Below are positions 1 through 33,537 of a stretch of DNA of 33,537 nucleotides, in pieces (position 1 is the first letter of the stretch; every line of letters starts with the position of its first letter). The translations under genes and the position numbers were made by a program. Source of the stretch: a virus (lineage: Duplodnaviria > Heunggongvirae > Uroviricota > Caudoviricetes); the IMG/VR virus record IMGVR_UViG_2734482570_000003. One strand, given 5' to 3'. The notes under the pieces were generated by a model, which searched no databases, had not been told where the DNA came from, and worked only from the letters and a program-made list of their open reading frames with translations.

Positions 1-536
1 CAGCACAGCAGCACATCGCCCGGCTGCGCCGCTGACAACGGCACCTGATACAGCCCTGTGGCCTCCAGATTATCAAGATAGAGATTCTGGCCGTTACGCC
101 ACCAGTCATCCTCACGATAAAAGTCCGGCATCTCAATCCCCGCCAGATGGTAAGCGTCCCGGAACAGCGTGTAACAGTCCGTCACCCCGTGCTCAAAGCG
201 CCGCCCGGTGAGATGCGGCACACAGCGGAACTTATGAATCGCCCCCCGGCAGACCAGCCACCACGGCAAATCACTCTGCACCTGCAGCCGCCGGTCGGCC
301 TCACTCAGCCAGGGCAGACCACCGGGATGACTGTGGACCAGCGCCACAATCTCACCCTGCATTTCTGCCTGCAGCCAGTCCTCCGGCGACATCCGGAAAT
401 AATCCTCCGGCTCACCGGAGATATTCACGCAGGGAAAATATCTTTCCCCCTCCGGCGTTCTCACCACGAAGCCGCACGACTCCGCTGGCGCACATCGCCG
501 GGCGTGCGCCAGAATCGCTGATTCTGTCTCTGTCAT
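1..536 (-). CDS. K: Tail assembly protein K (lambda gpK-like), 3-prime end truncated by window edge
   Basis: ATG (plus-strand cat) at 534-536 lies 5 nt after the L stop; open in that frame to the window edge; position in conserved L-K order. Not in ORF track because it is incomplete. Confidence 0.75.
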   Translation of the reverse strand, partial: MTETESAILAHARRCAPAESCGFVVRTPEGERYFPCVNISGEPEDYFRMSPEDWLQAEMQGEIVALVHSHPGGLPWLSEADRRLQVQSDLPWWLVCRGAIHKFRCVPHLTGRRFEHGVTDCYTLFRDAYHLAGIEMPDFYREDDWWRNGQNLYLDNLEATGLYQVPLSAAQPGDVLLC

Positions 537-540
537 GGGA

Positions 541-1239
541 TTACTGCGAAAGTTTGTTAATGGAAAGGAAGCCGCCAAAGTTGCCGACGTTATTGCGGAA
601 CTTACAGCCACTCAGGCATTTGCTGCATTTATCCTTCGTGATATCGGACGTCGGCTGGTCATATTCATCCGCGACCGCCGGACCGCTATAACCGCACTCA
701 TCACCGCGATAGGTCCAGGTGCAGGTGTTGGCCAGCATGATGCGCCCCGGAAAAACAGCACCATCCGTTTCCGTCGGCGTGGACAACACAAAGGAGGCAC
801 TGACCGCGCTCAGTTCGCTGCACTGCTCGACGCGCCAGCGGCTGATCACCTCCTGCTCCGGATCGGCATCACTGTTTCCGTTGACGAAATTCACCGCATC
901 CAGAAAACGGGCGTAAACCTTACGCCTGACCACCGTTCCGCCGACCAGACTCTGCAGATCTTCCACCATCCCGGTGACCATACCGTACAGGTTAGAAACC
1001 GTCAGCGTGGGGCGCGTACTGGTGCCTTTGCCATTCAGTTCAAAACCGCTCCCCTGAATGGGATACGCCTGATACTGTCGCCCCTGCCAGGTGACCGGCT
1101 CACCTTTTTCGTTCTGCTCATTACAGAAAAAATAACGTTCTCCACCGACCTCTGTCAGATCGATTTCCCAGAGCACCACGCTGGCCGACTGCTCCGCACG
1201 GGTGCATTCATTCAGTGTTTCCTGTTGGATATCCTGCAT
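541..1239 (-). CDS. L: Minor tail protein L
   Basis: 232-aa ORF; translation matches lambda gpL as remembered; overlaps M stop. Confidence 0.9.
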   Translation of the reverse strand: MQDIQQETLNECTRAEQSASVVLWEIDLTEVGGERYFFCNEQNEKGEPVTWQGRQYQAYPIQGSGFELNGKGTSTRPTLTVSNLYGMVTGMVEDLQSLVGGTVVRRKVYARFLDAVNFVNGNSDADPEQEVISRWRVEQCSELSAVSASFVLSTPTETDGAVFPGRIMLANTCTWTYRGDECGYSGPAVADEYDQPTSDITKDKCSKCLSGCKFRNNVGNFGGFLSINKLSQ

Positions 1240-1568
1240 CAGTTCACCACCTGTTCAAACTCTGCGCTGAACTCAACACGCAGCATACTGACCCGCGACG
1301 ACCATTTTGCGCAGGTCACCTTTATCTGCCGCCACTCATAAGGCGGCGTCCACAGAAAGGCTTTCCAGCCCCCGTGCTCAGCCAGAAACGACTCCAGCGC
1401 TGTGGCCTCCCAACGGGGAACAGAAAGCGTCACGCTGTACGTTTTCAGGTCAGCGTTCAGCCCGGCAGGCGCTCGCTGGGAATAGCCATCACCAAAGCGC
1501 ACCTTTCTTACGGAAGGGGCCGAAGCCACATCCATACCGGGTTTCACTTTCCAGCGGAAGGTTTTCAT
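1239..1568 (-). CDS. M: Minor tail protein M
   Basis: 109-aa ORF in conserved H-M-L order; ATGA-type overlap with H. Confidence 0.9.
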   Translation of the reverse strand: MKTFRWKVKPGMDVASAPSVRKVRFGDGYSQRAPAGLNADLKTYSVTLSVPRWEATALESFLAEHGGWKAFLWTPPYEWRQIKVTCAKWSSRVSMLRVEFSAEFEQVVN

Positions 1569-4126
1569 CGTCCACCTCCGGAGAACAGACCACCATCGCG
1601 CATCTGCCCGGTCACAACATCCATTGCCGCCTTACGGGCTACGTCATAAACAGCCTTCAGTGCCTGTGGCCCTATCTGACCGTTCGTGCCGTCGTTGTTA
1701 ATCACCACATGGTTATTCTGCTCAAACGTCCCGGACGCCTGCGACCGGCTGTCTGCCATGCTGCCCGGTGTACCGACATAACCGCCGGTGGCATAGCCGC
1801 GCATCAGCCGGTAGAGATTCCCCACGCCAATCCGGCTGGTTGCCTCCTTCGTGAAGACAAACTCACCACGGTGAACAATCCCCGCTGGCTCATATTTGCC
1901 GCCGGTTCCCGTAAATCCCCCGGTCGCAAAATGGAATTTCGCCGCAGCGGCCTGAATGGCTGTACCACCTGACGCTGATGCGCCACCACTGGCAGCACCG
2001 CCAATGGCGCTGCCGATACTCCCGACAATCCCCACCATTGCCTGCTTAAGCAGAATTTCTGTCATCATGGACAGCACGGAACGGGTGAAGCTGCGCCAGT
2101 TCTGTTCACTGCCGGTCAGCATCGCCGCCATATTCTGTGCAATACCATCAAAGGTCTGCGTGGCAGCACTTTTAACCTGCGACATACTGTCCGTGGCGCT
2201 CTCTTCCCACTCACTCCAGCCGGACTTCAGGCCTGCCATCCAGCTCCCGCGAAGCTGGTCTTCAGCCGCCCAGGTCTTTTTCTGCTCTGACATGACGTTA
2301 TTCAGCGCCAGCGGATTATCGCCATACTGTTCCTTCAGACGCTGTTCCGTGGCTTCCCGCGCTGCCTGCCGGTCAGTCAGCCCCCGGCTTTTCGCATCAA
2401 TGGCGGCCCGTTTTGCCCGTTGCTGCTGTGCGAATTTATCCGCCTGCTGCGCCAGCGCATTCAGGTGCTCCTGATACGTGACCTTATCGCCAAGTGCAGC
2501 CAGCTGGCGCTTGTACTCCAGCGTCTCGTCTTTATGCGCCAGCAGGGATTTCTCCTGTGCAGACAGCTGGCGACGTTGCGCCGCCTCCTCCAGTACCGCG
2601 AACTGATTCTCCGCCTTCCACAAATCCCGGCGCTGCTGGCTGATTTTCTCATTCGCTCCGGCATGCTTCTCCAGCGTCCGGAGTTCTGCCTGAAGCGTCA
2701 GCAGGGCAGCATGAGCACTGTCTTCCTGACGATCGCCCGCAGACACCTTCACGCCGGACTGCTTCGGCTTTTTCAGCGTCGCTTCATAATCCTTTTTCGC
2801 TGCCGCCATCAGCGTGTTGTAATCTGCCTGCAGGATTTTCCCGTCTTTCAGTGCCTTATTCAGTTCTTCCTGACGGGCGGTATATTTCTCCAGCGGCGTT
2901 TGCAGGCGTTCGTAAGCCTTCTGCGCCTCTTCGGTATATTTCAGCCGTGACGCTTCGGTATCGCTCTGCTGCTGCGCATTTTTGTCCTGTTGACTCTGCT
3001 GCTCAGCCTTCTTTCGGGCGGCTTCAAGCGCAAGACGGGCCTTTTCACGATCATCCCAGTAACGCGCCCGCGCTTCATCGTTAACAAAATAATCATCCTT
3101 GCGCAGATTCCAGATGTCGTCTGCTTTCTTAAACGCAGCCTCTGCCTTAATCAGCATCTCCTGAGCGGTATCAGGACGACCAATATCCAGCACCGCATCC
3201 CACATGGATTTGAATGCCCGTGCTGTCCTGTCTGCCCAGGTCTCCAGCGTGCCCATGTTCTCTTTCAGGCGGCGGGTCTGGTCATCAAACCCTTTCGTTG
3301 CGGCCTCGTTCGCCGCCTGCAATGCCCCGGCTTCATCGCCGGAACGCTGCAACTGAGCAACATACGCAATCTGCTCCGCCGTCACGTTATGGAACTGGCG
3401 TGCCATCGCCGTCAGCCCCGACGTCGGGTCTGTGGTCAGCTTCCCGAAGGCTTCAGCGACCTTGTCCACCTCCACGCCGGATGCAGAGGAGAAACGCGCC
3501 ACACTCTGGCTGATGGACGCAATCTGAGCCTCACCGCTTACCCCCGCCTTAACCAGTGCGCTGAGTGACTCGCTGGTCTGGTTAAACGTCAGCCCTGCCG
3601 CCTGCCCGGCTCTGGACAGGACCAGCATGCGATCTGCCGTCAGTCCCGCCTGATTGCCGGAAAGGACCAGCGTTTTGTTGAAATCGGACAGGGTTGAGTT
3701 GCCCTGATACCAGGCATACGCCAGCGCACCGGTCGCCACCGCCAGCGAGGTGGCCCCCACCATCGGCAGGGTGATCGCACCGGCAAGCCCCCTGAACATG
3801 GGGATCATCCCGCCGAAGGAGTCCTTAACCTGCCCCCCCTGTTGCAGCAGGATCAGCCACGGACTTTGCCCGCCTGCAAGCTGCGTGGCCACGTCGGTGA
3901 ACTGTGCAGGCAGCATACGCATGGCGGCTTTATACTGCCCGACGGAAATCCCCGCTTTCTGTGCAGCCAGCGCCTGTCGGCTCAGCGACTGTTCAACGAC
4001 TGCCGCTGTTTTTTTCGCATCACTTTCCGTACCGGAAAAATGACGCCTGACTCTGGCCATCTGCTCGTCAAATCTGGCCGCATCCAGACTCAAATCAACG
4101 ACCAGATCGCCTACCGGTTCAGCCAT
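1565..4126 (-). CDS. H: Tail tape measure protein H
   Basis: 853 aa, Ala/Gln-rich coiled-coil middle, Gly-rich C-terminus; same length as lambda gpH. Confidence 0.95.
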   Translation of the reverse strand: MAEPVGDLVVDLSLDAARFDEQMARVRRHFSGTESDAKKTAAVVEQSLSRQALAAQKAGISVGQYKAAMRMLPAQFTDVATQLAGGQSPWLILLQQGGQVKDSFGGMIPMFRGLAGAITLPMVGATSLAVATGALAYAWYQGNSTLSDFNKTLVLSGNQAGLTADRMLVLSRAGQAAGLTFNQTSESLSALVKAGVSGEAQIASISQSVARFSSASGVEVDKVAEAFGKLTTDPTSGLTAMARQFHNVTAEQIAYVAQLQRSGDEAGALQAANEAATKGFDDQTRRLKENMGTLETWADRTARAFKSMWDAVLDIGRPDTAQEMLIKAEAAFKKADDIWNLRKDDYFVNDEARARYWDDREKARLALEAARKKAEQQSQQDKNAQQQSDTEASRLKYTEEAQKAYERLQTPLEKYTARQEELNKALKDGKILQADYNTLMAAAKKDYEATLKKPKQSGVKVSAGDRQEDSAHAALLTLQAELRTLEKHAGANEKISQQRRDLWKAENQFAVLEEAAQRRQLSAQEKSLLAHKDETLEYKRQLAALGDKVTYQEHLNALAQQADKFAQQQRAKRAAIDAKSRGLTDRQAAREATEQRLKEQYGDNPLALNNVMSEQKKTWAAEDQLRGSWMAGLKSGWSEWEESATDSMSQVKSAATQTFDGIAQNMAAMLTGSEQNWRSFTRSVLSMMTEILLKQAMVGIVGSIGSAIGGAASGGASASGGTAIQAAAAKFHFATGGFTGTGGKYEPAGIVHRGEFVFTKEATSRIGVGNLYRLMRGYATGGYVGTPGSMADSRSQASGTFEQNNHVVINNDGTNGQIGPQALKAVYDVARKAAMDVVTGQMRDGGLFSGGGR

Positions 4127-4553: not shown

Positions 4554-4957
4554 TTTCCCGCAGAAACAGGCTCTGCAGGCCCGGCGTCCTCTGTCTGTTC
4601 AGGGGCATCATTCACCACAAACTCATACATTCCGGACAGCCGGTACACCACGTTTTCAGCATGAGAAATTGCCTCCGCGGGCCAGGTGGTAAGCACTTCC
4701 TGCTCAATCTGTTTAACGGCTTCATTCATGGACGGCATCTGCGTCTTCTTCGGATGGTTATGCCACAGGGACATCGCCACCACAAAAGCACCGGTTCTGA
4801 TAATGTCTGCCAAAGCAACCTGTTGGTTGCTGTCGGAGTCCGCCTGTTCTGCCTGCCGTTTCATCAGAAAAAGATGCTCAATACGCTGCAGGGCTGACAG
4901 TTCAGAAATCGTGACGGTCACGCCGTTATGTTCAAATGATTCGGTTTTCAGGAACAT
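4535..4957 (-). CDS. G: Tail assembly chaperone G
   Basis: 140-aa ORF between V and T; ends shortly after the slippery site. Confidence 0.9.
   Translation of the reverse strand: MFLKTESFEHNGVTVTISELSALQRIEHLFLMKRQAEQADSDSNQQVALADIIRTGAFVVAMSLWHNHPKKTQMPSMNEAVKQIEQEVLTTWPAEAISHAENVVYRLSGMYEFVVNDAPEQTEDAGPAEPVSAGKCSTVS
4553..4559 (-). other. Programmed -1 ribosomal frameshift slippery site GGGAAAG (G to GT)
   Basis: Plus-strand ctttccc is GGGAAAG on the coding strand, at the G/T overlap where G ends ...AGKCSTVS. Confidence 0.75.
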
Positions 4958-4972
4958 CGCTGACTCTCCGGA

Positions 4973-5713
4973 TTAGCTGTCGGTGACGTTGATTTCTGCA
5001 ACCGCAGCAAACTCACCATTACCGGATACAACCGGAATGTTGACCTTGCCTGCAGCAACACCTTTCACGGTGATGGTCATACCACTGACCGACACGGTGG
5101 CTTTTGTTTTATCCGCAGACACCGCACGGAAGCTCTTGTCGGTTGCGCCCTCCGGCTGGAATGCCACGGTCAGCGTCGTGCTCTGCCCTTTCACCACCGA
5201 GGTGCTGGCAGGCGTCACGGTCATACCGGTTGCCGCTGTTACCGTGCTGCGATCTTCTGCCATCGACGGACGTCCCACGTTGGTGACTTTCACCGTGCGG
5301 GTGATCACTTCCTTCGCTGTCACCGCCTTACCGATGCTGCTGACCCAGCCGCGGAACACATCGACCGTGCCGTTCGGGAAGCGGATTTTATAGGCACGGG
5401 TATCACCTTCATTAAACCACGCCAGCAGCGCCTGCTGCCCCTGCTCTCCGGGCATCCACGCCAGCGTGAAGCTGGTATCTCCGGCAGATTTCTGCCCCTG
5501 CCCGGTCGCGCTCCAGTCTGCATCTTCATCATCGAGATAGCTGTCGTCATAGGACTCAGCGGTCAGTTCGCCGGGCGTCAGGTCTTTAACTTTAGCCAGA
5601 CGCGACCAGTCAACGTCTGAAAGCGGGTTCGCATAAGGGTCACCGTTCCCCTTATAAACCCACAGGGTGGTTCCGGCACCTTTCACCGGTGCCAGAGGAT
5701 TTGGTGTTGGCAT
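4973..5713 (-). CDS. V: Major tail protein V (with C-terminal Ig-like domain)
   Basis: Track ORF 4973..5743; probable true start is the internal Met ([22 protein letters not shown]...), giving about 246 aa as in lambda gpV. Confidence 0.9.
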
Positions 5714-5720
5714 ATCGTCC

Positions 5721-6116
5721 TCACATTTCATAGGTAATGACATAAGTCAGATCGGCTGAACTCCACAGGCCCGCATCATCGTCGCGCCGGTAGTCATAGC
5801 CACTGGCCACCATACTGGTGATCAAATCTGACAGTGCCGGGATATCGCTCATCACCGGATAAATCCGGGACTCCATCCACGCATCCAGCTCTGAATCCGG
5901 CACCTGAGCAGGCAGGAAAACTTCAATATGCAGCTCCGCCTGCCAGGTATCGCTGTCCAGCTCTTCGCCCGTGTATTCAGCGCCGGTGAGATAAACGGCA
6001 ACTGCCGGAAAATCCGCCTCATCAAAAACAGCGGGGCGACCATCAAAAAACGTCGCCCCGGTGTCATGCTTCTCCAGTGCATCCAGTACGGCTGCACGGA
6101 GTTCAGTATGTTTCAT
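5721..6116 (-). CDS. U: Tail terminator protein U
   Basis: 131 aa; conserved position between Z and V. Confidence 0.9.
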
Positions 6117-6691
6117 CGCTTTATTACCATCCTCAGTTGATGCTGCAGCGCATAGCCCAGCTCTTTCGGAAGACGTTCACGCCGTATCTGCTCAATATTC
6201 TGTTTAAACGCCGTGGTCAGCGGCACCGCCATCGGGATTTTCACCACATCAATGGGGTAACGGTTTTTCCCGGCCACACGCTGCATGACATGCCACCGGC
6301 CATTTTTCAGTTGCTGAATAAACGCGCCGGGAATACGACGGTTTCCCACCACAAGCACGCTGCCGCCACCTTTCAGGGATGAACGCTGCCCCTTTTTACG
6401 ACGCCTGCGGCGGGACAGGACAACCCGCGCATTCCCCAGCTTGATTACGGGCAAATCCCCCCGGTTAACCCTGATTCTGGCCTGCGGATTTTTGACCGTG
6501 GCCCTTTTCAGCCTGGCCCTTTCCTTTACCAGTTTCCGGCGTACCTTTGTCTCACGGGCAACCTGTGCCGCCGACTGCGATATCGCGGATGAAGCAACGC
6601 GGTTAATGGCCATTGCTGACGCACCAGGCACCGCCGTTTTGCTGATACGGCTGAGGTTTTCAACGGCCTGCTCAAGACCTTTTATGGCCAT
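6113..6691 (-). CDS. Z: Tail completion protein Z
   Basis: 192 aa; basic Arg-rich middle; conserved order. Confidence 0.9.
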   Translation of the reverse strand: MAIKGLEQAVENLSRISKTAVPGASAMAINRVASSAISQSAAQVARETKVRRKLVKERARLKRATVKNPQARIRVNRGDLPVIKLGNARVVLSRRRRRKKGQRSSLKGGGSVLVVGNRRIPGAFIQQLKNGRWHVMQRVAGKNRYPIDVVKIPMAVPLTTAFKQNIEQIRRERLPKELGYALQHQLRMVIKR

Positions 6692-6702
6692 ACATCCCCC
6701 TT

Positions 6703-7056
6703 TCAGCGACGACGGTTAACGGCAGGCGGCACGCCACGCCCAAGCCAGAGATGACAGCTTCCGCCATCATCCGGCGAAATCCGGTCTATCCAGAAGTTTT
6801 CCTCACCGATGGTCAGCGTGTCTCCACGCCGCAGCTGCCGCACATCATCAGTCCGGACAAACAGGGACGGGCTGGAGCCTTCAACGCGCACGCCCTGTCC
6901 GGCATAGCTGATATTTTCAGGGTCATCAAAAACACCACGTATCACAGCACCGGACTGCTCACCGGATGTCATGGTGGCTGACGTTCCCATGTACCCGCGT
7001 ATCGTTTCATCGGCGCGGGCAATGGCAGCATCGAACAGGTTATCGAAATCAGCCAC
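6703..7056 (-). CDS. FII: Head-tail joining protein FII
   Basis: 117 aa; conserved order. Confidence 0.9.
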   Translation of the reverse strand: MADFDNLFDAAIARADETIRGYMGTSATMTSGEQSGAVIRGVFDDPENISYAGQGVRVEGSSPSLFVRTDDVRQLRRGDTLTIGEENFWIDRISPDDGGSCHLWLGRGVPPAVNRRR

Positions 7057-7067
7057 AGCGCCTCCCG

Positions 7068-7463
7068 TTATTGCATTCTGGCCAGGCCGCGCTCTGTCAT
7101 TTCGGCTGCCACACCGGCAGAGACACGAAACGCCGTTCCCGGCAGCACAAATGCCACAGGTTCATCCCGCGTGGCGTGAAGTGCATCGGTATGCAGCGTC
7201 ACCAGTGCCACAACCGTGACCAGAGCAGCCGTATCAGTCACGGTATCCGTCTGTGCTGATACCACCTCATTTTCATGTCCGGTCAGCGCATTTTCCGGGC
7301 TGACAGACGAGTCCTGACCGGCTGCGTCATCCGTGTCATCAAGCTCCTCTTCCAGCTCTGCCACACGGAGCGCCAGTTCTTCTTTCGTCCCCGTCAGGCT
7401 GACATCACGGTTCAGTTGCTCACCCAGCGACCGGAGACGGGCAATCAGTTCATCTTTCGTCAT
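7068..7463 (-). CDS. FI: DNA packaging protein FI
   Basis: Track ORF 7068..7502; likely start at internal MTKDELIARLRSLGEQL; central segment looks divergent from lambda FI. Confidence 0.8.
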   Translation of the reverse strand: MTKDELIARLRSLGEQLNRDVSLTGTKEELALRVAELEEELDDTDDAAGQDSSVSPENALTGHENEVVSAQTDTVTDTAALVTVVALVTLHTDALHATRDEPVAFVLPGTAFRVSAGVAAEMTERGLARMQ

Positions 7464-7504
7464 GGACTCCTCCACAGAGAAACAATGGCCCCGAAGGGCC
7501 ATGA

Positions 7505-8530
7505 TTACGCCAGTTGTACGGACACGAACGCATCAGGGTCAGCCAGCAGCATCAGCGGTGCTGACTGAATCATGGTGAACTCACGCGCCGGATCGCCAGT
7601 GGTCACCCAGTTTTTCGGGTAGCGGGCAGAGGCGTTAATACCTTCGCGCTGTGCGTCCGCATCCTGAATGCATCCATAGGTGCGCAGACCGCGTGCCTGA
7701 GTGTTCCCCAGCACCATCGTGTTGTCCGGCAGGAAGTTCTTTTTGACGTCGTTTTCCACGTACTGTCCGGAATACACGACGATCGCCGTATCGCCATACA
7801 TCCCCTTATAGGACACCGCTTCGCCCAGGTCTTTTACCGCTGTCTCCAGCTCGGAATTAGAGCCGCGACGGGTATCCAGCTTCTCCTTGACGGCTTTGAA
7901 GGAACGGAACAGCGCCCAGCCTTTCGGATCAAACACGATGATATTCACCACGCCGCTGGCGTTCAGTGCGTAGGCTTCGATATCGTCGGTCGGGTCATAC
8001 GTGGACTTGTCACGCTTGCTCCACTCCGTGCCGCCGGACTGTGTGATGTTATTCGCCGCACTGCGGCCCATATCCACCTCAACCGGATCGAAGGCTTCAC
8101 CGGTCATGGTGTATTTGCCCTTAAGCACGGCAGAAACGGCCTGCATCTCTTCGACCTGAGCAATGGCCAGCTCTTCGTCTCGCATGTTCTGCATGATGAT
8201 GCGACGGCGGCGGTAAGCCGGGTCTGCCAGATTCTGTGGATCTTCATCCGGCAGGCGACGCAGGGTCATCTGCGGATTCACCTCATGCTTCGGCTTGACA
8301 TATCCCGGCGTAAATTCGGAGGTGGAGCCGCCACGGGAGCGGATAACCTCACCGGAAACAATCGGCGAAACGTACAGCGCCATGTTTACCAGTCCCGGAA
8401 TTTGTGAGAGATAGACTTTCTCCGTGGTGAAGGGATAGCTCTCACGGAAAAAGAGACGCAGAAACAGCGGATCAAACTTAAATTTCTTCTCATTTGCCGC
8501 CAGCAGCTGGGCGGTTGTGTACATCGACAT
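7505..8530 (-). CDS. E: Major capsid protein E
   Basis: Track ORF 7505..8557; true start at MSMYTTAQLLAAN gives 341 aa as in lambda gpE. Confidence 0.95.
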   Translation of the reverse strand: MSMYTTAQLLAANEKKFKFDPLFLRLFFRESYPFTTEKVYLSQIPGLVNMALYVSPIVSGEVIRSRGGSTSEFTPGYVKPKHEVNPQMTLRRLPDEDPQNLADPAYRRRRIIMQNMRDEELAIAQVEEMQAVSAVLKGKYTMTGEAFDPVEVDMGRSAANNITQSGGTEWSKRDKSTYDPTDDIEAYALNASGVVNIIVFDPKGWALFRSFKAVKEKLDTRRGSNSELETAVKDLGEAVSYKGMYGDTAIVVYSGQYVENDVKKNFLPDNTMVLGNTQARGLRTYGCIQDADAQREGINASARYPKNWVTTGDPAREFTMIQSAPLMLLADPDAFVSVQLA

Positions 8531-8543
8531 AAAAAAATCCCGT

Positions 8544-8565
8544 AAAAAAAGCCGCACAGGCGGCC
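8544..8565 (-). terminator. Stem-loop plus T-run between D and E (attenuator/terminator-like)
   Basis: On the minus strand GCCGC-CTGT-GCGGC followed by seven T residues; same position as the lambda D-E intergenic hairpin. Confidence 0.5.
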
Positions 8566-8585
8566 TTTAGTGATGAAGGGTAAGG

Positions 8586-8918
8586 TTAAACGATGCTGAT
8601 TGCCGTTCCGGCAAACGCAGTCCGTTTTTTCGTCTCGTCGCTGGCAGCCTCCGGCCAGAGCACATCCTCATAACGGAACGTGCCGGACTTGTAGAACGTC
8701 AGCGTGGTGCTGGTCTGGTCAGCAGCAACCGCCAGAATGCCAACGGCAGCACCGTCGGTGGTGCCATCCCACACAACCAGCTTACGGGTGGCGGTGTCCA
8801 GCATCAGCGGGGTCATTGCAGGCGTTTTCGCACTCAATCCGCCGGGCGCGGTTGCCGTATGTGCCGGGTCACTGTTGCCCAGCGGCTGGTAATGGGTAAA
8901 GGTTTCTTTGCTCGTCAT
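8586..8918 (-). CDS. D: Head decoration protein D
   Basis: Track ORF 8586..8924; start at [12 protein letters not shown] gives 110 aa. Confidence 0.9.
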
Positions 8919-8927
8919 AAACATCCC

Positions 8928-10227
8928 TTACACTGGTGTGTTCAGCAAATCGTTAACGGCATCAGATGCCGGGTTACCTGCAGCCAGCGGTGCCGGTGCC
9001 CCCTGCATCAGACGATCCAGCGCAGTGTCACTGCGCGCCTGTGCACTCTGTGGTGCAGCTGCCAGAATGCGGCGGGCCGTTTCCACGGTCATACCGGGGG
9101 TTTCTGCCAGCACGCGGGCCTGTTCTTCGCGTCCGTGAGCCTCCTCACAGTTGAGGATCCCCATAATGCGACTGTTTTCTGCCGCAACCGCTGCGGTGAT
9201 CTGCGCGTTCACGTCCGGTTGCGCCGCGCTGGCGTTTTCGCCCTCCGTCGCTGGCACCACGTCAGTAACGTCAGCCTGCGAAGCAGTGGCTGAAACAGTT
9301 GTTGATTGAGTCTCTTTGGTCATTCGCCCTCCTGAGAGACGGGATTTACGTGCATCCAGTGCATCACGCATGACGGTGATCGCATCGGTACTGTTAACAA
9401 GTTCATCAGCCAGTCCGGCATCAATGGCCTCCTGACCGCTGTACACTGCAGCCTCGGTATCCAGCACAGCCTGCACGGACAGGCCGGTATATGCCGACAC
9501 CTTCTGTGCAAACATCCGGCGGGTTGCATCCATCCGGGACTGCAGTGTTTCCCGGACATCATCCGGTAGATGGCTGTAGGGGTTGCCATCCACCTTATGG
9601 CTGCCGCTGTAAATCAGCGTGATTTCCACGCCCTGTTTCTCCAGCGCAGCACCGTAATTACTGTGAGCCATCATGACGCCGATGGAGCCTGTCCGGGCGG
9701 TCTGCGTGACCAGACGCCGGGAGGCGGCGCTGGCAAGCAACTGACCTGCACTGCAGTTCATGTCGTTGGCCAGCGCCCATACCGGCTTTATGTCACGCAC
9801 ACGGGCGATGATGTCAGCGCAGTCAAATGCCCCTGCCACCATTCCGCCGGGCGTGTCCATATCGAGCAGAATGCCGTCCACCATCGGGTCGCTGGCAGCC
9901 TGTTGCAGACGGGCGATAATGCCGTTGTAACCGGTCATCCCCGAATACGGCTGCAGCGCCCGTGTCCGGCTGACCAGCGTGCCGGAAACCGGCAGCACGG
10001 CGATGCCGTTCATGACCTGATAACTGCGGGCCTGTCGTGGTCCGTCATCATCAACGGATAACGCCAGCGTCGCGGGTGCCTCTCCGGCAGTCAGGCTGTC
10101 GCCGGATACCGCATCCGTCAGGCGGCTGATCCCAAGCTGGCCTGCAAGCGCACAAAAGAAAACCCGCGCATAGGCGGGTTCAAGCATCAGCGGCTCATTA
10201 AAGGCCATACTGGCAATATGCGGGAGA

Positions 10228-10247
<20 letters not shown>
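8928..10247 (-). CDS. C: Head maturation protease/scaffold C with nested in-frame Nu3
   Basis: Track ORF 8928..10361 has an N-terminal extension; GTG start at VTAELRNLPHIASMAF gives 439 aa; overlaps the end of B as in lambda. Confidence 0.85.
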
Positions 10248-13928
<3,681 letters not shown>

Positions 13929-14519: not shown

Positions 14520-14700
14520 AAAAAGCCCGTTTTCAGCATCTGTCGTTTCCTTTCTTTTCAGGGGGTGTTTTAAATAAAAACATGAAGTTACGGCGAAGAA
14601 GAACGGAAACGCCTTAAACCGGAAAATTTTCATAAATAGCGAAAACCCGCGCGCCTTCCGCCCCGTAACAGGCCGGATCGCCGGAAAGGACCCGCAAAGA
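14520..14700. other. cos region (cosB, cosN, cosQ) internal to the window; cosN about 14652-14663
   Basis: Reverse complement of 14581-14700 aligns with the remembered lambda cos flanks; the 12-nt cohesive-end position reads GGGCGGAAGGCG. Confidence 0.75.
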
Positions 14701-14915
14701 TGAGAATAATTATCACTTGCATTAATATCCGGCTTCTTCCACCCTCGCACAGGACTGGCGAGCATGAGGGACAAACCCGCGAATCATTAGCGCGGTAAAA
14801 ACCCGGTGTGCATCGTTTTTGATTATTTCCGCACACTCGCGCAGAGGAGTTCCCCGTCGGGCTACGGTCATGGTTAATGCGGAAATACGGCGACGATGCA
14901 GCGCGGTATTTAATG

Positions 14916-24374: not shown

Positions 24375-24971
24375 ATGAAAACACGAGGCGAACGACTGAA
24401 AGCACGCCGTTTAGAGATGAAGCTGACGTTGCGAGAAGTTGCTGAGGCTGTCGATATCTCTATAGCAGGCGTCCAAAACTTAGAACGTGGCGACGTAATG
24501 CCGTCACTGGAGATAGGTATTGCCCTGGCTAAGTGCTTACGCAAGCCAGTGCATTGGGTGCTATATGGGACAGAATATGACCCTGATCGCATTCCTGTTA
24601 TTGGCACAACTGAAAGTGGGCCGGATGAAGAGTGGAAGCCGGGACAGGTTCCAAATACTGAGCGATTCCTGCCATTCATCAGCCAGCGCAATACTGTGTA
24701 TGCGTTAACTATCAGCAATCTTACGCAGGGAAACTATCAGCCAGGCGATTTTCTCCTGGTCGATTCTGCGCTGGAACTGGTCCCCGGCGAGGATGTTCTG
24801 GTTCGTGATACTGCAGGAAATATCACTATCCAGCGCCTGGCCCGTTTTGATGATGAAAATTACTATCTGGATGGAACAAACTCACAACGCGCCATCTTCA
24901 GGAAAAGCGATCTTGAATTTGTTCACCAAATAGTCGGAACGATCAAATCATTCATGGTTGAGGGTAGATGA
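24375..24971 (+). CDS. cB: Prophage repressor (CI/CB-like; N-terminal HTH, C-terminal LexA/S24-like domain)
   Basis: 198 aa; HTH LTLREVAEAVDISIAGVQNLERG; C-terminal GDFLLVDSALELVPGEDVLV resembles an S24 fold; divergent from cro with operators between. Confidence 0.8.
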   Translation: MKTRGERLKARRLEMKLTLREVAEAVDISIAGVQNLERGDVMPSLEIGIALAKCLRKPVHWVLYGTEYDPDRIPVIGTTESGPDEEWKPGQVPNTERFLPFISQRNTVYALTISNLTQGNYQPGDFLLVDSALELVPGEDVLVRDTAGNITIQRLARFDDENYYLDGTNSQRAIFRKSDLEFVHQIVGTIKSFMVEGR

Positions 24972-25216: not shown

Positions 25217-28200
25217 ATGACATTAAACGATTTCTATGCGGATCGCTTTGGCAGCGATCCGTTCTCGCTAATTGAAGCAGCACGGGATGAACTAACCGAG
25301 CTGGCACAGATGGCTGGTATCAACTGGCCTGCCTGTTCCGACAACATCCAACTCAACCCTCGCGGGGGGGTTGAGCGTTACTCTTCATACAATAAAACAT
25401 CTCCAGAAGCTCTCGAAAAGAGCCTGAAAGGACGCGTAGAAATTTACTCCAGGCTGGAACACAGCAAAGGGATTGATTACCCGTTCATTAACTTCGTCCA
25501 TAAAGGCAGCGATGCTGGCTCATGGAGCGGTTTCTCCTTCCTGTTTTCTGAATATCGCCGTGAGCAACAACGGAATAATGCGACCGTGGTCGCACAACCG
25601 GAAGAAGAACGGGAAAGAATAGAACGTCAGGCCGAAGCACGTCGTCGCCGTGAAGAACAAAAACGAATTAATGACCTGAAAAACAACCAAATGGACCATG
25701 AACGTTTGCTGGGATGGCTGGCATTCCACAGCGCGTGGGAACATGCTCCGGCTGAAGACGGCTCATGGCCATATGCGATTAAAAAAGGTATTCGTGACGT
25801 TTTTAGTTCATGTGATGTGCGTCGCGTGACCAGTCACGACAGTGCGAAATGGAGCCGGGGGCCAACCACATATATGGCTATCCCTCTGGCTCACCTGGAC
25901 AGTCGTTATGATGGTCGTATTGTGGGTTGGCAGCGAATCGACAAACAAGGTGGGAAATACCAGACCAGCGCAGTAACCAGCGGCGATTTCGTCGGTGCCT
26001 GCTTTGTTATCGGTGAGCTGAAAGGGGCGCAAAACATCGCTGTTACAGAAGGTTTTGCTACTGGTGCATCCATCTGGCTTGCCACGAAAAAAGATAAACG
26101 CTTTGACGCTGTGGTTGTCGCTGTATCCGCTAACAACATGGTTCATGTTGTGGAACAACTGGTAAACATGTACCCGGCGGCAAAAATCACCTGCGCACTG
26201 GATAATGACCGGAAATCTGCCACAGAAGGAAAAGGGAATACCGGCCTGCGGACTGGCTATGAAATCTTATCGAAATTCAACGATGTCCGCTGCGTCTATC
26301 CAACTTTTGAAGACGATCCGCAAATGGAGTGCAGTGACTTCAACGACCTGCACAAACTACGTGGACTTCGTGAAACAGCACGTCAACTATTTGCAACAGC
26401 AAACCGCCTGAAAACCGGTACTGATTTGCTATCTCTGACGCTCAACCGCCTGAAGACAATTAAGCGGGATAACCGTCGTACTTTTGCCAAAGAGCTGCTG
26501 AGAGCGGTGGATATTGGCATGCTAACCTGTCCGGTTCCTAACAGTCCGTCAGATTTATTTAACATGTTCTGCATCGTTCTGCGTGAAATGGGACTGGAAA
26601 ATATCTATCGTGCTACGGTAAAAGACCACATTGCCCGTCGCCTGAATAAAAAGTGCCGTATTGCCCAGGCTCCGCGCTCTTTCAGCGAACGCATAACTGA
26701 TCCCAATAAACGACCTCAACATATCACCTATAAGCGTTTTGAAACTTCGGTAATGACCGATGATGTCCTGAAGTACGTGCAATCACTACAGGGGATAGTC
26801 ATCGTCCGTGCTGGTATGGGTTCCGGCAAATCTACTGGATTGTTACGACCGTTAATGCATAGCTCAGAACGTGGTATCTCTGTTGCTCACCGTGTCTCCC
26901 TTATTGGTGGCCTGTGGGAAATGATGACAGAAGGAAAAGGTGTAAAAGCCGATATCCTGCACTATCAGGATCCTGGCTATCAGGAAATGGCTCCATACGC
27001 CAGTAAACTGACCATCTGCATAAACTCGATTGTTAAAAACTGCTGGCAACCGTTGATGCGCCAGCACGACTATTTTGGCTTTGACGAGGCCACACAAGGG
27101 CTACGTGCCGTTCTTTCCGGTCGGGCTATGGAAAACCCGGTGGCTGTATTCAATACGCTAATTGACGCGCTGGCCAGAACGGAACAACACCCAATCATGG
27201 TGGATGCTGATGCGAACGATCTGCTGGTTGACCTGGCTGAACTAGCTATGAAACGCCGTGAAGAACTAGGTTTACCGGCATGGCTGCAGATCCACGTAAT
27301 TGAATTACCTGTTGATGTTCGCAACCGCGAAACAGGTGAGCCAATCCGGGTTTTTTATACAGAAAAAGATCGCATCATGACCGAGGTGGTGAAAGCTGTA
27401 TCGGATGGCGAAAAAATCATGTTGGCCACCGACAGCTCCACCTTTGCAGAAGATGTGACAGCCACCCTGAGAATGCATTTTCCTGGTAAGAAATTTCTGT
27501 GTGTAAACCAGAAAAACAAACCAGAGCCAGAAGTTGAAGCATTTACCAATCAACCGAAAAAGATGGTCAAAAAATACGACGGCCTGATTTATAGCCCGTC
27601 TATTTCATCCGGCGTGTCGATTGAGCAAAAACATTTTGACCGTCATTTCGGCATGTTCTGTGGTGAAGTTGTACCCAGCGACGCAGTGCAAATGCTACGC
27701 CGCGACCGTACAGCAAAAGAATTTATTATCGGCTTTGATAAAGCTCGTGCAAAACGTGAAACTGACCCGCAAAAAATAGAACGAGCATTCGCCCAGGCAT
27801 TGCTTGCTACTGCAGGTATGAACGGTGAACTGACGGATGTCGTTTTCGATGGCGACCGTATATCAATGGGGGTGGCCAATACCGACTTTACCAGGATGAA
27901 AATTAAAGCAGCCGCAATTGAAGCGTCTGCACGTAACGACTACGCCAGCAACATGATCTGCATCATGCACAGCGACGGTTATAAGATATCGCCGCTGGCC
28001 ACCGATTATGCTGCAAATGATATCGGTAAAGATCTGCGTAAAGAAGCGCGGGATATTGTGTGGGAACAGACACTGGATCTGCATCTCAATACAGAAACTC
28101 CACAAGAATCAGAGCGTGAAGAACTGCTAAAAAAACGCGCGCTAACGCTTGAAGAACAGGCAAAACTTGTCCGCTGGGATATTGAGAACGAACTGAAACT

Positions 28201-29212
28201 ACCGGTTGAAGAAGGCACGCTGAAATTCTATTTCGATGGTGCTCGAGACAAAGTTCGCCGCTATGAAACAATGCTTTTAGATGAGGTAACAGCTCGTCGT
28301 TACGACCGGGAAGAAGCAGCCATCAATTTTACCTACGCATACCGTCAGGCGGGACAGTGGCAATATTTTGTAGTGACCGCAATGACTCGCGAGCAGGCTG
28401 ATGATGTCTTTAAAACTAAATTCCCTGGAATAATCGACTACAAGGTAAAAGCTACTCCTACTGTTGAAGTCGGGGCGCGCGGTTTCTATGCGCTTAAATC
28501 AGCAACTCTCCGGCAGTACTTTATCGACTGCGGTATCAACCCTGAGACTATGACCGGCGAGGCGACTCAGGAGCGTCTCAAATTTGCTCGAGATAACCTC
28601 ATGACAGCCGAACGCCGTGACCTGTTGAATAACGTTCTGCACATTGGTGGTTTTATGACGCCAAAAGGGAAGCCTAAAGTGCCGGAAGCGTTGTTTAAAA
28701 ACATTTGCGACTCTCTTGGCCTTAAAACAGGTAAACGTCGCGGCAGAGACGGCGATAAGCGTCCAACCTTGCGTTTTGTTGAGCCTGAATCAGCGGCATT
28801 TATGCTGGATATTCTTGCTCAGCGTCAGAAAGATGGCCTAACCCTGAAAACGCGTAAAGCCGAGAAGACCGCCATCGAAATGGATCGCGATTTGGATCTC
28901 AATATATATATGGATGATAAAACGCGATCCACAAACGAGCAGGTTCAAAACGCCCCTCATTCAGTAATTTCTGAGGCTTTGGCCGTGTTGCCAGTGGCTG
29001 TACCTGAGTCCTGGGCGATGAGTGCGCTTTCCAGTGAGGAGTTGGCCACCATGTCATCATGGTCATCAGCCAGCATAGCTATGACGTTTGCATCCCTGTA
29101 CCTCACAGAGTTCATGGATCACCTTTCCAGCAATGAGCTGCGGCGGTTACGTGAATACATTACGGGGAATAGCTCATGCAGCTACGAAGAGCAGGGCGCT
29201 TTCTATGGGTAA
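25217..29212 (+). CDS. repA: Replication protein RepA (N-terminal TOPRIM primase domain plus P-loop helicase domain)
   Basis: 1331 aa; TOPRIM-like motifs (AVTEGFATGAS, ALDNDRKS); Walker A AGMGSGKST and Walker B-like FGFDEA; adjacent to cB as in N15-type phages. Confidence 0.85.
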   Translation: MTLNDFYADRFGSDPFSLIEAARDELTELAQMAGINWPACSDNIQLNPRGGVERYSSYNKTSPEALEKSLKGRVEIYSRLEHSKGIDYPFINFVHKGSDAGSWSGFSFLFSEYRREQQRNNATVVAQPEEERERIERQAEARRRREEQKRINDLKNNQMDHERLLGWLAFHSAWEHAPAEDGSWPYAIKKGIRDVFSSCDVRRVTSHDSAKWSRGPTTYMAIPLAHLDSRYDGRIVGWQRIDKQGGKYQTSAVTSGDFVGACFVIGELKGAQNIAVTEGFATGASIWLATKKDKRFDAVVVAVSANNMVHVVEQLVNMYPAAKITCALDNDRKSATEGKGNTGLRTGYEILSKFNDVRCVYPTFEDDPQMECSDFNDLHKLRGLRETARQLFATANRLKTGTDLLSLTLNRLKTIKRDNRRTFAKELLRAVDIGMLTCPVPNSPSDLFNMFCIVLREMGLENIYRATVKDHIARRLNKKCRIAQAPRSFSERITDPNKRPQHITYKRFETSVMTDDVLKYVQSLQGIVIVRAGMGSGKSTGLLRPLMHSSERGISVAHRVSLIGGLWEMMTEGKGVKADILHYQDPGYQEMAPYASKLTICINSIVKNCWQPLMRQHDYFGFDEATQGLRAVLSGRAMENPVAVFNTLIDALARTEQHPIMVDADANDLLVDLAELAMKRREELGLPAWLQIHVIELPVDVRNRETGEPIRVFYTEKDRIMTEVVKAVSDGEKIMLATDSSTFAEDVTATLRMHFPGKKFLCVNQKNKPEPEVEAFTNQPKKMVKKYDGLIYSPSISSGVSIEQKHFDRHFGMFCGEVVPSDAVQMLRRDRTAKEFIIGFDKARAKRETDPQKIERAFAQALLATAGMNGELTDVVFDGDRISMGVANTDFTRMKIKAAAIEASARNDYASNMICIMHSDGYKISPLATDYAANDIGKDLRKEARDIVWEQTLDLHLNTETPQESEREELLKKRALTLEEQAKLVRWDIENELKLPVEEGTLKFYFDGARDKVRRYETMLLDEVTARRYDREEAAINFTYAYRQAGQWQYFVVTAMTREQADDVFKTKFPGIIDYKVKATPTVEVGARGFYALKSATLRQYFIDCGINPETMTGEATQERLKFARDNLMTAERRDLLNNVLHIGGFMTPKGKPKVPEALFKNICDSLGLKTGKRRGRDGDKRPTLRFVEPESAAFMLDILAQRQKDGLTLKTRKAEKTAIEMDRDLDLNIYMDDKTRSTNEQVQNAPHSVISEALAVLPVAVPESWAMSALSSEELATMSSWSSASIAMTFASLYLTEFMDHLSSNELRRLREYITGNSSCSYEEQGAFYG
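25579..25594. repeat. sopC-like centromere palindrome TGCGACC-GT-GGTCGCA (copy 4, inside repA, encodes ATVVA)
   Basis: Perfect palindrome within the repA coding sequence. Confidence 0.6.
25825..25838. repeat. Palindrome family B CGTGAC-CA-GTCACG (copy 2, inside repA)
   Basis: Exact 14-mer match to the 19753 copy. Confidence 0.5.
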
Positions 29213-31417: not shown

Positions 31418-33325
31418 TTATCCGAAATATGTCAGCCATGCTAACTGCATTGCTGATATAGGGCTGTTTGCACTGCCGGACCAAGCATAATTCTGGCCAT
31501 TATAATGAAACTCAACAACGTATGAGCCATCACCAATATTTCTCACAGGCTTAAATACCGGCTTAGATACAGGTGAAGAAGGCGCGGGCGGTTGCTGTTC
31601 TTCTACGCTCTCTTCCTCTTCCTCTTCCTCTTCCTCTTCCTCTATCTCAATTTCGTCGTCATCCAGATCGTCATCCTCTGATAATTCATCCGTCTGTTCA
31701 GGTATTGCTTCCAGCTCTTCTTCGTCAGGCATAACGATTTCTGGAGAATCTATTTTCAGCTGCCATTGTCCATTTTCGCCAACAAATTGCCCCAGAGCAT
31801 CAGCAGCAAACTCCAGGTATCGACTAATCATTGTAGGGCTAAATTTGAATGCTCTTAGAGTGCTGTTCGTGATTTTTATAGAGGGGTCCTGCTCTACCAG
31901 CTGCTTAACTGTGTTATGCAGACGAACTCCGGCATCTCCTCTGGCGAATCCTGGCATTTCGTCATCAAGCTGCTGCAATGCTTCCAGCCTGGTATTTTCG
32001 TTTCCAGTATTTGGCCTCCATGTCTTTGAGAAGTTGGCCAGCTTGAATTGCTTATAGTGTAATTGAGTGTTTTCATCGTCATGGCCTAAAATTTCCATAA
32101 AGAAAACATCCTCATCTACGTTTTTCCAACGAGGATCTACGCGGAAAAACATTTCATACGCAATACGGGCATAAATAGCACGACTATCTTTATAAACACG
32201 GCGGTCATCTTTGAAAAATGATTTAACCCACGGGTTAAAAGCCTTTGCTAATATGGCATTAATCCGTCCGTTTTCAGAGCGTGTGTCGTTATCTCCATAA
32301 CCTTTAACGACATCATCAAAATCAGATGCTGCTGGGCATGAGCGAAGTACATTTATTAAATAAACAAATGTTTTTGCTTCGCATAATGTATATATTTTTC
32401 TGGTTATATCATCAGAAGTTCTTTTTTTTGCTTGGCCTAAAAAATCAACGGTATACTTACCAGAAACAGTAAATGTACCTTGATACATAATCTCAATCAT
32501 TCGTCTTCCTGACAATGCAGCAAGTGCAAATGCCAAAGGAGCCATACCTGAACGAGTGTTTAGATTATTTAATGTAGCAGGGCTATTTATAATATCGTAA
32601 ATAGCTTGCATATATTTAGGGTAATCAATGACCACCACGTTACGTTTCTTATTGTGCAGAACGTCTGCCCATCGTTGCTGGATAGATGCGCGTTCGGCAG
32701 GGCTTAGTTGAAGATGATAGAGAATCTCATGGTTAACTTTTAGCTGATTCAACTCCTCAAGTAAGGCAGATCCTTGCTGTAGTAATTTATATAAATAATC
32801 GCGCTTATCTTTCCAGTTATCGCTAGTTAAATCAGAAATGGCGAATTGCCACTCTTTATATTTATTTGATAATTTTAATAACTTATTATGACTTTTGTTA
32901 TCACCAATTCTGATATTAGATAAATCTTCTGATAAAGGGAGAATTAATTTTAATTTTGCCTGTAAAGCTGACATTCTCTGGCGAATATCGGCAGCAGGTA
33001 GAGAAAGCCATGATAATAGCTCCTCATTATATAAAGGATACTTTTCAGATAGGCGATGTATATTTTTTTCAAAGCTATGATGAAGTTTATCATCAAACCG
33101 TTTTCTGGCCCTGCTCATATAGGCATTGAATGTGTTGGCTGTAATTCTTTTTTCTAATCCTTTCCCCCTAAACTTTCGCTTGTCATTAAATAATGCATTT
33201 TTAAATTTTAATGCAACAGCTTTTATTTTTTTTGTTTTTTCCCCTTGAGGACGGTCAGAGTTATCTATTGACTCAACATCGCTAACAAGTGAGTTTATTA
33301 ATTCACCGATTTTTACTTTGCTCAT
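31418..33325 (-). CDS. telN: Protelomerase (telomere resolvase) TelN
   Basis: 635 aa, close to the 631 aa of N15 TelN; long acidic linker; adjacent to the telomere palindrome. Confidence 0.85.
   Translation of the reverse strand: MSKVKIGELINSLVSDVESIDNSDRPQGEKTKKIKAVALKFKNALFNDKRKFRGKGLEKRITANTFNAYMSRARKRFDDKLHHSFEKNIHRLSEKYPLYNEELLSWLSLPAADIRQRMSALQAKLKLILPLSEDLSNIRIGDNKSHNKLLKLSNKYKEWQFAISDLTSDNWKDKRDYLYKLLQQGSALLEELNQLKVNHEILYHLQLSPAERASIQQRWADVLHNKKRNVVVIDYPKYMQAIYDIINSPATLNNLNTRSGMAPLAFALAALSGRRMIEIMYQGTFTVSGKYTVDFLGQAKKRTSDDITRKIYTLCEAKTFVYLINVLRSCPAASDFDDVVKGYGDNDTRSENGRINAILAKAFNPWVKSFFKDDRRVYKDSRAIYARIAYEMFFRVDPRWKNVDEDVFFMEILGHDDENTQLHYKQFKLANFSKTWRPNTGNENTRLEALQQLDDEMPGFARGDAGVRLHNTVKQLVEQDPSIKITNSTLRAFKFSPTMISRYLEFAADALGQFVGENGQWQLKIDSPEIVMPDEEELEAIPEQTDELSEDDDLDDDEIEIEEEEEEEEEEESVEEQQPPAPSSPVSKPVFKPVRNIGDGSYVVEFHYNGQNYAWSGSANSPISAMQLAWLTYFG
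31609..31640 (-). repeat. Hexanucleotide (CTCTTC)n coding repeat giving a poly-Glu tract in TelN
   Basis: Plus strand ctcttcctcttcctcttcctcttcc; encodes EEEEEEEEEEEE. Confidence 0.8.
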
Positions 33326-33415
33326 CTTTCCTCTCCTGATTATCCGCTCGGATTATCGTAACACAATTTGAGAATAAGATAACTAATAACGCGTTAACTT
33401 AGTCACAAACTAACA

Positions 33416-33458
33416 GAACACAATAACGGATAATAAACAAAAACACAATATCGGAACG
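33416..33458. repeat. Direct repeats AACACAATA(A/T)CGGA (two copies) between telN and the telomere site
   Basis: gaacacaataacgga (33416-33430) and aacacaatatcggaa (33441-33455). Confidence 0.4.
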
Positions 33459-33495
33459 CTAAAATTTGTTCCTTGACTTTGTTCTAAAGATCAGC

Positions 33496-33537
33496 ACATA
33501 ATTCCCCATTATACGCGCGTATAATGGGGAATTATGT
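33496..33537. other. Telomere resolution site (telRL/telO-type palindrome), truncated by the window end
   Basis: Perfect 42-bp palindrome ACATAATTCCCCATTATACGCG|CGCGTATAATGGGGAATTATGT, dyad centre between 33516 and 33517, running to the last base of the window. Confidence 0.8.

Follow-up and report, generated by a model that had tools for sequence, protein, structure and literature searches.

Results

A telomere-resolution site at the end of the window

The stretch of DNA analysed here, referred to throughout as the window, is 33,537 nucleotides long and ends in a telomere-resolution site, a perfect palindrome of 42 bp (21+21 nt; 33496..33537) that was recognized from its complementarity, from DNA folding and from the presence of the same palindrome in at least 20 related contigs. 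Its left arm (ACATAATTCCCCATTATACGC, 33496-33516) and its mirror half (GCGTATAATGGGGAATTATGT, 33517-33537) are 100% complementary with no spacer, such that the dyad centre, i.e. the hairpin tip, falls between 33516 and 33517 and the final base of the second arm is the last base of the window. By direct calculation, a perfect inverted repeat of 21 nt with zero spacer has a chance of about 4^-21 per position, and in DNA folding the single strand forms a hairpin of 19 pairs (-17.7 kcal/mol, z = -7.9). The centre of the palindrome is a 22-bp telO core (33506..33527), CCATTATACGCGCGTATAATGG, identical to the centre of N15 telRL. This core occurs once in the window, as an exact match, and in none of 100 shuffles, even when three mismatches were allowed; the same scan revealed no second tel site within the window.

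The neighboring gene is telN (31418..33325, minus strand), which encodes a protelomerase (telomere resolvase) of 635 aa. Transcription is directed away from the telomere, with the palindrome being found 170 bp upstream of the gene. All four Pfam domains found in the product (TelK_N, TelK_muzzle, ResT-TelK_cat and TelK_stirrup) scored over their cut-offs, with E-values of 1e-25 to 1e-50. The product matches the TelK crystal structure (PDB 2V6E) with an E-value of 2e-295 and shares 77% identity with N15 TelN, including a conserved tyrosine context, TQLHYKQFKL. A preliminary description of this DNA held that the sequence runs 21 nt past the dyad centre with perfect symmetry and that the palindrome is the telomere of a linear plasmid-prophage, with its tip at that centre. 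Both statements hold, given the full complementarity of the two arms, the adjoining telN and the N15 telO core.

Between telN and the palindrome lies an A+T-rich spacer (33326..33495), the telL flank, which contains short repeats of the GAACA/TGTTC type and presumably the telN promoter. The only promoter-like match in this spacer was not above shuffle expectation, and the palindrome was accordingly rejected as a promoter element. The palindrome was also flagged as terminator-like on the minus strand, but this candidate was dropped, as any palindrome that contains G+C and has T's after it would qualify. The last bases of the spacer, gATCAGC (33489-33495), are those over which the symmetry would extend if a fold-back continued. 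Of these, ATCAGC (33490..33495, plus strand), at positions 22-27 from the tip, is the outer arm specific to telL and marks the point where telL and telR diverge, the telR of the same lineage reading AACGAA instead. Many short GAACA(C/T)/TGTTC repeats are seen in the A+T-rich flanks of both telomeres (33400-33495 in the window and 4590-4760 in the telR flank of the related contig L003), and N15 presents similar motifs beside telRL. These may be accessory binding repeats, for TelN or related to partition.

Identity of the element

What defines N15-like phage-plasmids was found here in three parts, namely a protelomerase of the TelN/TelK family with a tyrosine-recombinase-like catalytic domain, a palindromic tel site with the telO core beside telN, and a RepA-type protein together with cos, lambdoid head and tail genes and a prophage map permuted relative to cos. 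The RepA-type replication protein is encoded by an open reading frame at 25217..29212 (plus strand, 1331 aa), which is annotated as 'plasmid replication protein, CyRepA1 family' in a relative that is 99.99% identical. Over 33.5 kb, the window is 99.7-99.99% identical to the linear E. coli plasmid pCAVP367-48 (47.6 kb), the annotation of which lists a protelomerase, a CyRepA1 replication protein, cI/cro/Q, lysis genes, terminase, and head and tail genes; through the relative's annotation, terminase, portal, capsid and tail genes can be placed in the window. Close relatives in GenBank are the phages PhiR46_1 and YDC107_1. As plasmids, relatives appear in 18 complete E. coli genomes and in 32 PLSDB records, while the exact TelN protein of the window is found in 643 blocks of the contig collection.

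Because of the four TelK/ResT domains, the telO core identical to that of N15 and the identity to pCAVP367-48, the element is, as judged by sequence, an N15-like (Ravinvirus-type) linear plasmid-prophage of about 47 kb that is common in E. coli and already known. Fold-back contigs of both telL and telR from the same lineage lend indirect support to covalently closed hairpin ends on this molecule.

Map order, cos and the left end

The N15 cosR+cosL junction aligns over positions 14720-14623 of the window, which places the equivalent of the 12-nt cohesive end, GGGCGGAAGGCG, at about 14652..14663 on the minus strand. Here, the window reads ...cctgttacg gggcggaaggcg cgcgggttttcgctat..., as compared with ...CCTGTTACG GGGCGGCGTCCG CGCAGATTCTCGCTAT... 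in N15. As cos is contiguous inside the window and tel lies at its end, the order is that of the prophage or of a circular form, and not that of the virion. The window thus covers 33.5 kb from the telL end, over the joined cos and into the tail genes.

A repeat scan and alignment to relatives showed that, on the left, the contig breaks off within lambdoid tail genes (1..1500, minus strand), namely L, K (C40 peptidase) and I, with base 1 of the window corresponding to position 35250 of L030, inside tail gene K. Copies of these genes that are 95-99% identical were found in 4384 of 5426 E. coli genomes (81%), at a median of three places per genome. Since the tail genes recur in most E. coli chromosomes, the left break was probably induced by this repeat, and an end in such a repeat fits short-read assembly of cellular DNA rather than of purified virions. 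About 12.4 kb that are present in near-identical relatives are absent from the window, comprising I, J, lom, stf, tfa, sopB, sopA and telR; sopAB, expected next to telR, were not found in the window.

Beside cos, pCAVP367-48 contains about 1.6 kb more than does the window, with two hypothetical ORFs. The extra segment is flanked by a direct repeat of 171 bp (L030 18562-18732 and 20346-20516) that is single-copy in the window (14734-14904). An indel in this part of the right arm, or a scar left by recombination, accounts for the difference.

The telL and telR arms

Related contigs that contain or end in the palindrome were collected by exact-pattern scans of the viral_contigs, metagenome_contigs and genome_contigs collections (the last of which gave 0 matches), and the arm was classified on each side. 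In the lineage of the window (the CCCC variant), the telL arm reads ...ctaaagATCAGC-ACATAATTCCCCATTATACGC and the telR arm ...gaacatAACGAA-ACATAATTCCCCATTATACGC. Counted from the tip, the first 21 nt, and no more, are common to both arms, which diverge at position 22. Arms of the telR type were found in nine contigs (L004, L014, L015, L016, L019, L020, L022, L024 and L025), of which L015, L022 and L025 end on the telR side. In the four contigs that run from sopA through tel into telN (L004, L014, L016 and L020), perfect symmetry spans exactly 21 nt per arm. The telR fold-back contigs L019 and L024 present the telR arm, ...AACGAA-ACATAATTCCCC..., independently of any junction.

Beyond +21 (positions are counted from the dyad centre), fold-backs continue into gctgat (L005-L008, L011 and L012), while telRL-type junctions continue into ttcgtt (L004, L014 and MARGA_3). 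The last base of the window is thus the last one common to a fold-back, where the next base is g, and to telRL, where it is t. An initial assumption that the shared arm is 27 nt long, taken from PhiR46_1 (in which case +21 would equal k-1-27, with k=49), was dropped, as contigs of the window's own lineage share 21 nt.

The outer block at positions 22-27 of telR reads AACGAA in L004, L014, L015, L016, L019, L022 and L024 and AGCGAA in L021. ATCAGC occupies this block on both arms in N15 and in the PhiR46_1 lineage but only on the telL side in the window lineage; because the block is replaced in telR alone, natural telRL is asymmetric beyond +/-21. At a telL|telR junction around position 7668 of L037 (IMGVR_UViG_2700989363_000008), the arms (telL ...AATACCCC..., telR ...AATTTCCC...) already differ at position 13, leaving 12 nt of perfect symmetry, which shows that, from one lineage to the next, the two kinds of arm evolve or recombine independently of each other. 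A single right-arm mismatch, gcgtaAaatgg for gcgtataatgg, was seen around position 4020 of the 'circular' record L031 (NZ_JAUDQL020000005.1, MARGA_3), where the consensus was perhaps called wrongly at the hairpin.

How sibling assemblies end

Sibling assemblies end short of the centre (-51, -22 and -7), exactly at it (PEC011) or past it (+6, +11, +19, +19, +27, +29, +32, +34 and +51). Those ending at +27, +29, +32, +34 and +51 continue past the palindrome as telL or telR fold-back sequence, as do L011 and L012. Fold-backs reach from 0.37 to more than 9.8 kb, the long ones being L002 and L005-L008, and include a short-read MEGAHIT contig (L008) and the GenBank phage record YDC107_1. Read-through into sopA was found in L004, L014, L016, L020, MARGA_3 and 19KM1803. 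Four contigs from at least three assemblies, namely the window, L013, L015 and L023, end at exactly +21. L013 (telL side) and L015 (telR side) belong to one genome and both finish with the full 42-bp palindrome, which is the pattern left when two contigs meet at one node of an assembly graph. The sister lineage with the TTTCCC variant and a 27-nt shared arm, for which an end at +27 would be expected, offered only two contig ends, of which the first lies at +29 and the second folds back over 654 nt. The expectation, stated in the preliminary description, that a contig should stop at the dyad centre was therefore not upheld, as siblings almost never do so, with ends from -22 to +51, fold-backs of kilobases and read-through into sopA.

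Several deposited records deserve mention in their own right. JAERMT010000136.1 (46,787 bp, the two ends of which are L021 and L026) holds the whole prophage from telL to telR, with an overshoot of +27 at telR and of +6 at telL, a difference for which no single k accounts. The 'complete genome' of Escherichia phage YDC107_1 (L002, CP025712.1) folds back through the telL hairpin (5662-11775), with the protelomerase, BRO and gp31 genes recurring mirrored past the dyad centre. Perfect mirroring is limited to 368 nt, and long-read indels have probably broken up the second protelomerase copy, which appears as three CDSs. The E. coli PEC011 plasmid pPEC011-4 (L033, NZ_JBRAXZ010000005.1; 35,995 bp), labelled circular, ends at the dyad centre and carries a 'tail assembly protein' CDS annotated over the point where the record begins. 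It resembles a partial prophage, of about the same segment as the window, that was artefactually circularised. Some of the sop-tel-telN 'junction' contigs, furthermore, could be graph joins at small k rather than copies of physical telRL molecules.

Simulation of assembly across the telomere

A de Bruijn walk was started from the telL flank for each physical form of the DNA, with k ranging from 21 to 127. When only hairpin reads were supplied, the walk stopped at (k-1)/2 past the centre, yielding +21 only at k=43, and +27, +29, +34 and +51 at k=55, 59, 69 and 103, respectively. The values +27 and +29 correspond to k values that metaSPAdes (55) and MEGAHIT (59) use by default. With telRL reads only and k of 43 or more, the walk passed straight through the palindrome. 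With hairpin and telRL reads together, it halted at a G/T out-branch lying precisely at +21, whichever k between 43 and 127 was used. At k of 41 or less, the palindrome was ambiguous for any form and the node-based walk gave +20 or less; graph reasoning suggests that, at such k, +21 would also be the end point for any assembler printing the palindromic edge in full, whatever the DNA form. According to this model, +21 is an end point of the graph that is reached most generally when both types of junction are present in the reads.

Discussion

In the N15-type cycle, virion DNA circularises via cos, after which TelN cuts telRL and seals the hairpins (PMC10612081). Replication of N15 yields telLL and telRR junctions that are resolved by TelN (PMC12624138), and fold-back reads can thus come from denatured hairpins or from unresolved telLL, while telRL reads can come from infecting, lytic or virion DNA. 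With this in mind, we consider it likely that the end of the window is an ordinary branch of the assembly graph, at the limit of the arm shared by telL and telR of an N15-like tel site. The adjacent protelomerase would cut the tel site and reseal it as the telL hairpin, and the 21 nt past the centre would be the mirror half of the palindrome common to telL and telR and not extra biology. Position 33537 would then be the last unambiguous base in the graph, from which a g leads into the fold-back (a denatured hairpin or a replicated telLL junction) and a t leads to the telR/sop side (telRL of a circular or virion form). Most likely, the DNA came from a lysogen or a community that contributed both fold-back and telRL-type reads, and the assembler halted at the branch. 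If so, a partner contig, ...CATAACGAA+PP', with sopA and sopB and the same terminal 42 bp, should be found in the same assembly. We infer that 33537 is a real contig end, because this base of the palindrome is also the last one in three other public contigs, and we likewise infer the assembler and its k and the presence of both forms. The stop at +21, if anything, hints that both forms of the DNA were present.

The preliminary description took the 21 nt as deciding which physical form had been sequenced, this being either an unprocessed telRL or read-through of the hairpin by the assembler. As telL and telR share exactly these 21 nt, both forms predict the same bases and the 21 nt cannot separate them. 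What survives of that view is that the source must be a telRL-type junction or a hairpin, whereas the strict choice between the two does not, since the exact +21 is best reproduced with both junction types and telLL provides a third source (PMC12624138).

A stop of this kind could also arise if the linear hairpin prophage (or telLL) alone had been sequenced and the assembler had rounded the telL tip, stopping (k-1)/2 past the centre, where the next k-mer is the reverse complement of one already used. The simulation reproduces such a stop and siblings at +27, +29, +32, +34 and +51, as well as the long fold-backs L002 and L005-L008, do run on as fold-back, but we regard this reading as unlikely, as k would have to be exactly 43 and the agreement of 21 with the length of the shared arm would have to be a coincidence that occurred in four contigs from at least three assemblies. 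To our knowledge, 43 is not the default final k of common assemblers. The converse reading, in which only telRL (of circular, replicative or virion DNA) was sequenced and the contig broke in or at the palindrome, with k being shorter and the four-way self-reverse-complement ambiguity therefore arising, appears quite improbable. While simulated walks at k of 41 or less likewise cannot cross the palindrome, they yield +20 or less, such that +21 would require the whole palindromic edge to be printed; a final k below 43 is, as far as we know, unusual in current assemblies. Contigs that run from sop through tel into telN and 'circular' RefSeq records of the phage do exist, yet the left end of the window, lying in a repeat of chromosomal lambdoid genes, speaks for cellular DNA, in which the prophage is the prevailing form.

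That 33537 is no contig end at all, the window having been cut from a longer fold-back or telRL record, is very hard to credit. Many records do run on past this point, but chance would rarely place a cut precisely on the palindrome's final base, three public contigs share this end, the window does not have a round length, and its other end falls in a repeat typical of contig breaks. A stronger version of the graph-branch explanation can also be considered, according to which hairpin (or telLL) and telRL forms coexisted at comparable abundance in one sample; as a separate point, the telR arm without ATCAGC would be a natural experiment suggesting that TelN needs no more than +/-21 bp of symmetry in vivo. 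We hold this version to be possible but doubtful; if true, such coexistence would imply that lytic or circular replication was going on to a substantial extent among the lysogens.

Among the closest known systems, N15 (Escherichia phage, Ravinvirus) shares the identical 22-bp core beside telN and a similar TelN, as well as lambdoid morphogenesis genes, cos, RepA, sopAB (in relatives of the window) and a prophage map permuted relative to cos. The N15 record lists telRL as a repeat_region at 24775-24830, with the cut site at 24802/3 equalling the dyad centre (...cccattatacgc|gcgtataatgg...). Its 56-bp telRL, however, is perfectly symmetric for only 11 nt per arm, with mismatches at 12 and 14 and symmetry again outward, whereas in the window lineage the two arms match perfectly over 21 nt each and ATCAGC, further out, is present on the telL side only. 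Away from conserved blocks, N15 is about 74-78% identical to the window at the nucleotide level.

PhiR46_1 (PV340565.1), YDC107_1 (CP025712.1) and pCAVP367-48 belong to the same phage group as the window, with 96-100% nucleotide identity. Unlike that of the window, the palindrome in PhiR46_1 and YDC107_1 is of the TTTCCC type, and in PhiR46_1 telL and telR share 27 nt per arm. The three records also differ in how they end, as PhiR46_1 has telL and telR annotated at the record ends and extends 11 nt past each centre, YDC107_1 contains a fold-back of several kb and pCAVP367-48 stops 51 nt short of the centre. In PY54 and phiKO2, palindromic telRL sites are likewise processed by enzymes of the TelN/TelK family, and the protein of the window matches TelK (2V6E); these phages differ in host and in palindrome length. 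Their telRL palindromes are 42 bp (PY54) and 50 bp (phiKO2) long.

In Borrelia, wrap-around at hairpins, or 'terminal inverse duplication', is a recognised signature of assembly in which the sequence past the tip mirrors the sequence before it and is trimmed at the inversion point (bioRxiv 10.1101/2025.07.18.665644). The window shares this mirroring, but the Borrelia case concerns long reads and kilobases, whereas here there are 21 nt, in what is seemingly a short-read contig, with a length set by the telomere sequence that is shared. The same preprint reports no Illumina coverage across hairpin turn-arounds (bioRxiv 10.1101/2025.07.18.665644). If this were valid here, fold-back k-mers would come from telLL and not from hairpins; short-read fold-back contigs show that turn-around reads do exist for this phage. 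A survey of telomere phages (PMC12042878) contains nothing on the assembly of ends.

The chief value of these results is practical and lies in how the contig ends of hairpin-ended phage-plasmids in public assemblies are to be read. The overshoot past the centre is set by the k of the assembler and by the length shared by telL and telR, and not by biology, and several 'complete' or 'circular' records deposited for this phage, namely CP025712.1, CP088810.1 and that of the PEC011 plasmid, are either fold-backs or, as it seems, circles made artefactually. A contig that ends with the full shared palindrome can, moreover, serve as a flag for a telomere, and allows the telL and telR contigs of one element to be paired. 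Both the element and the class of artefact are known, and the new biology amounts, at most, to a minor point, the asymmetry between the telL and telR arms in this lineage.
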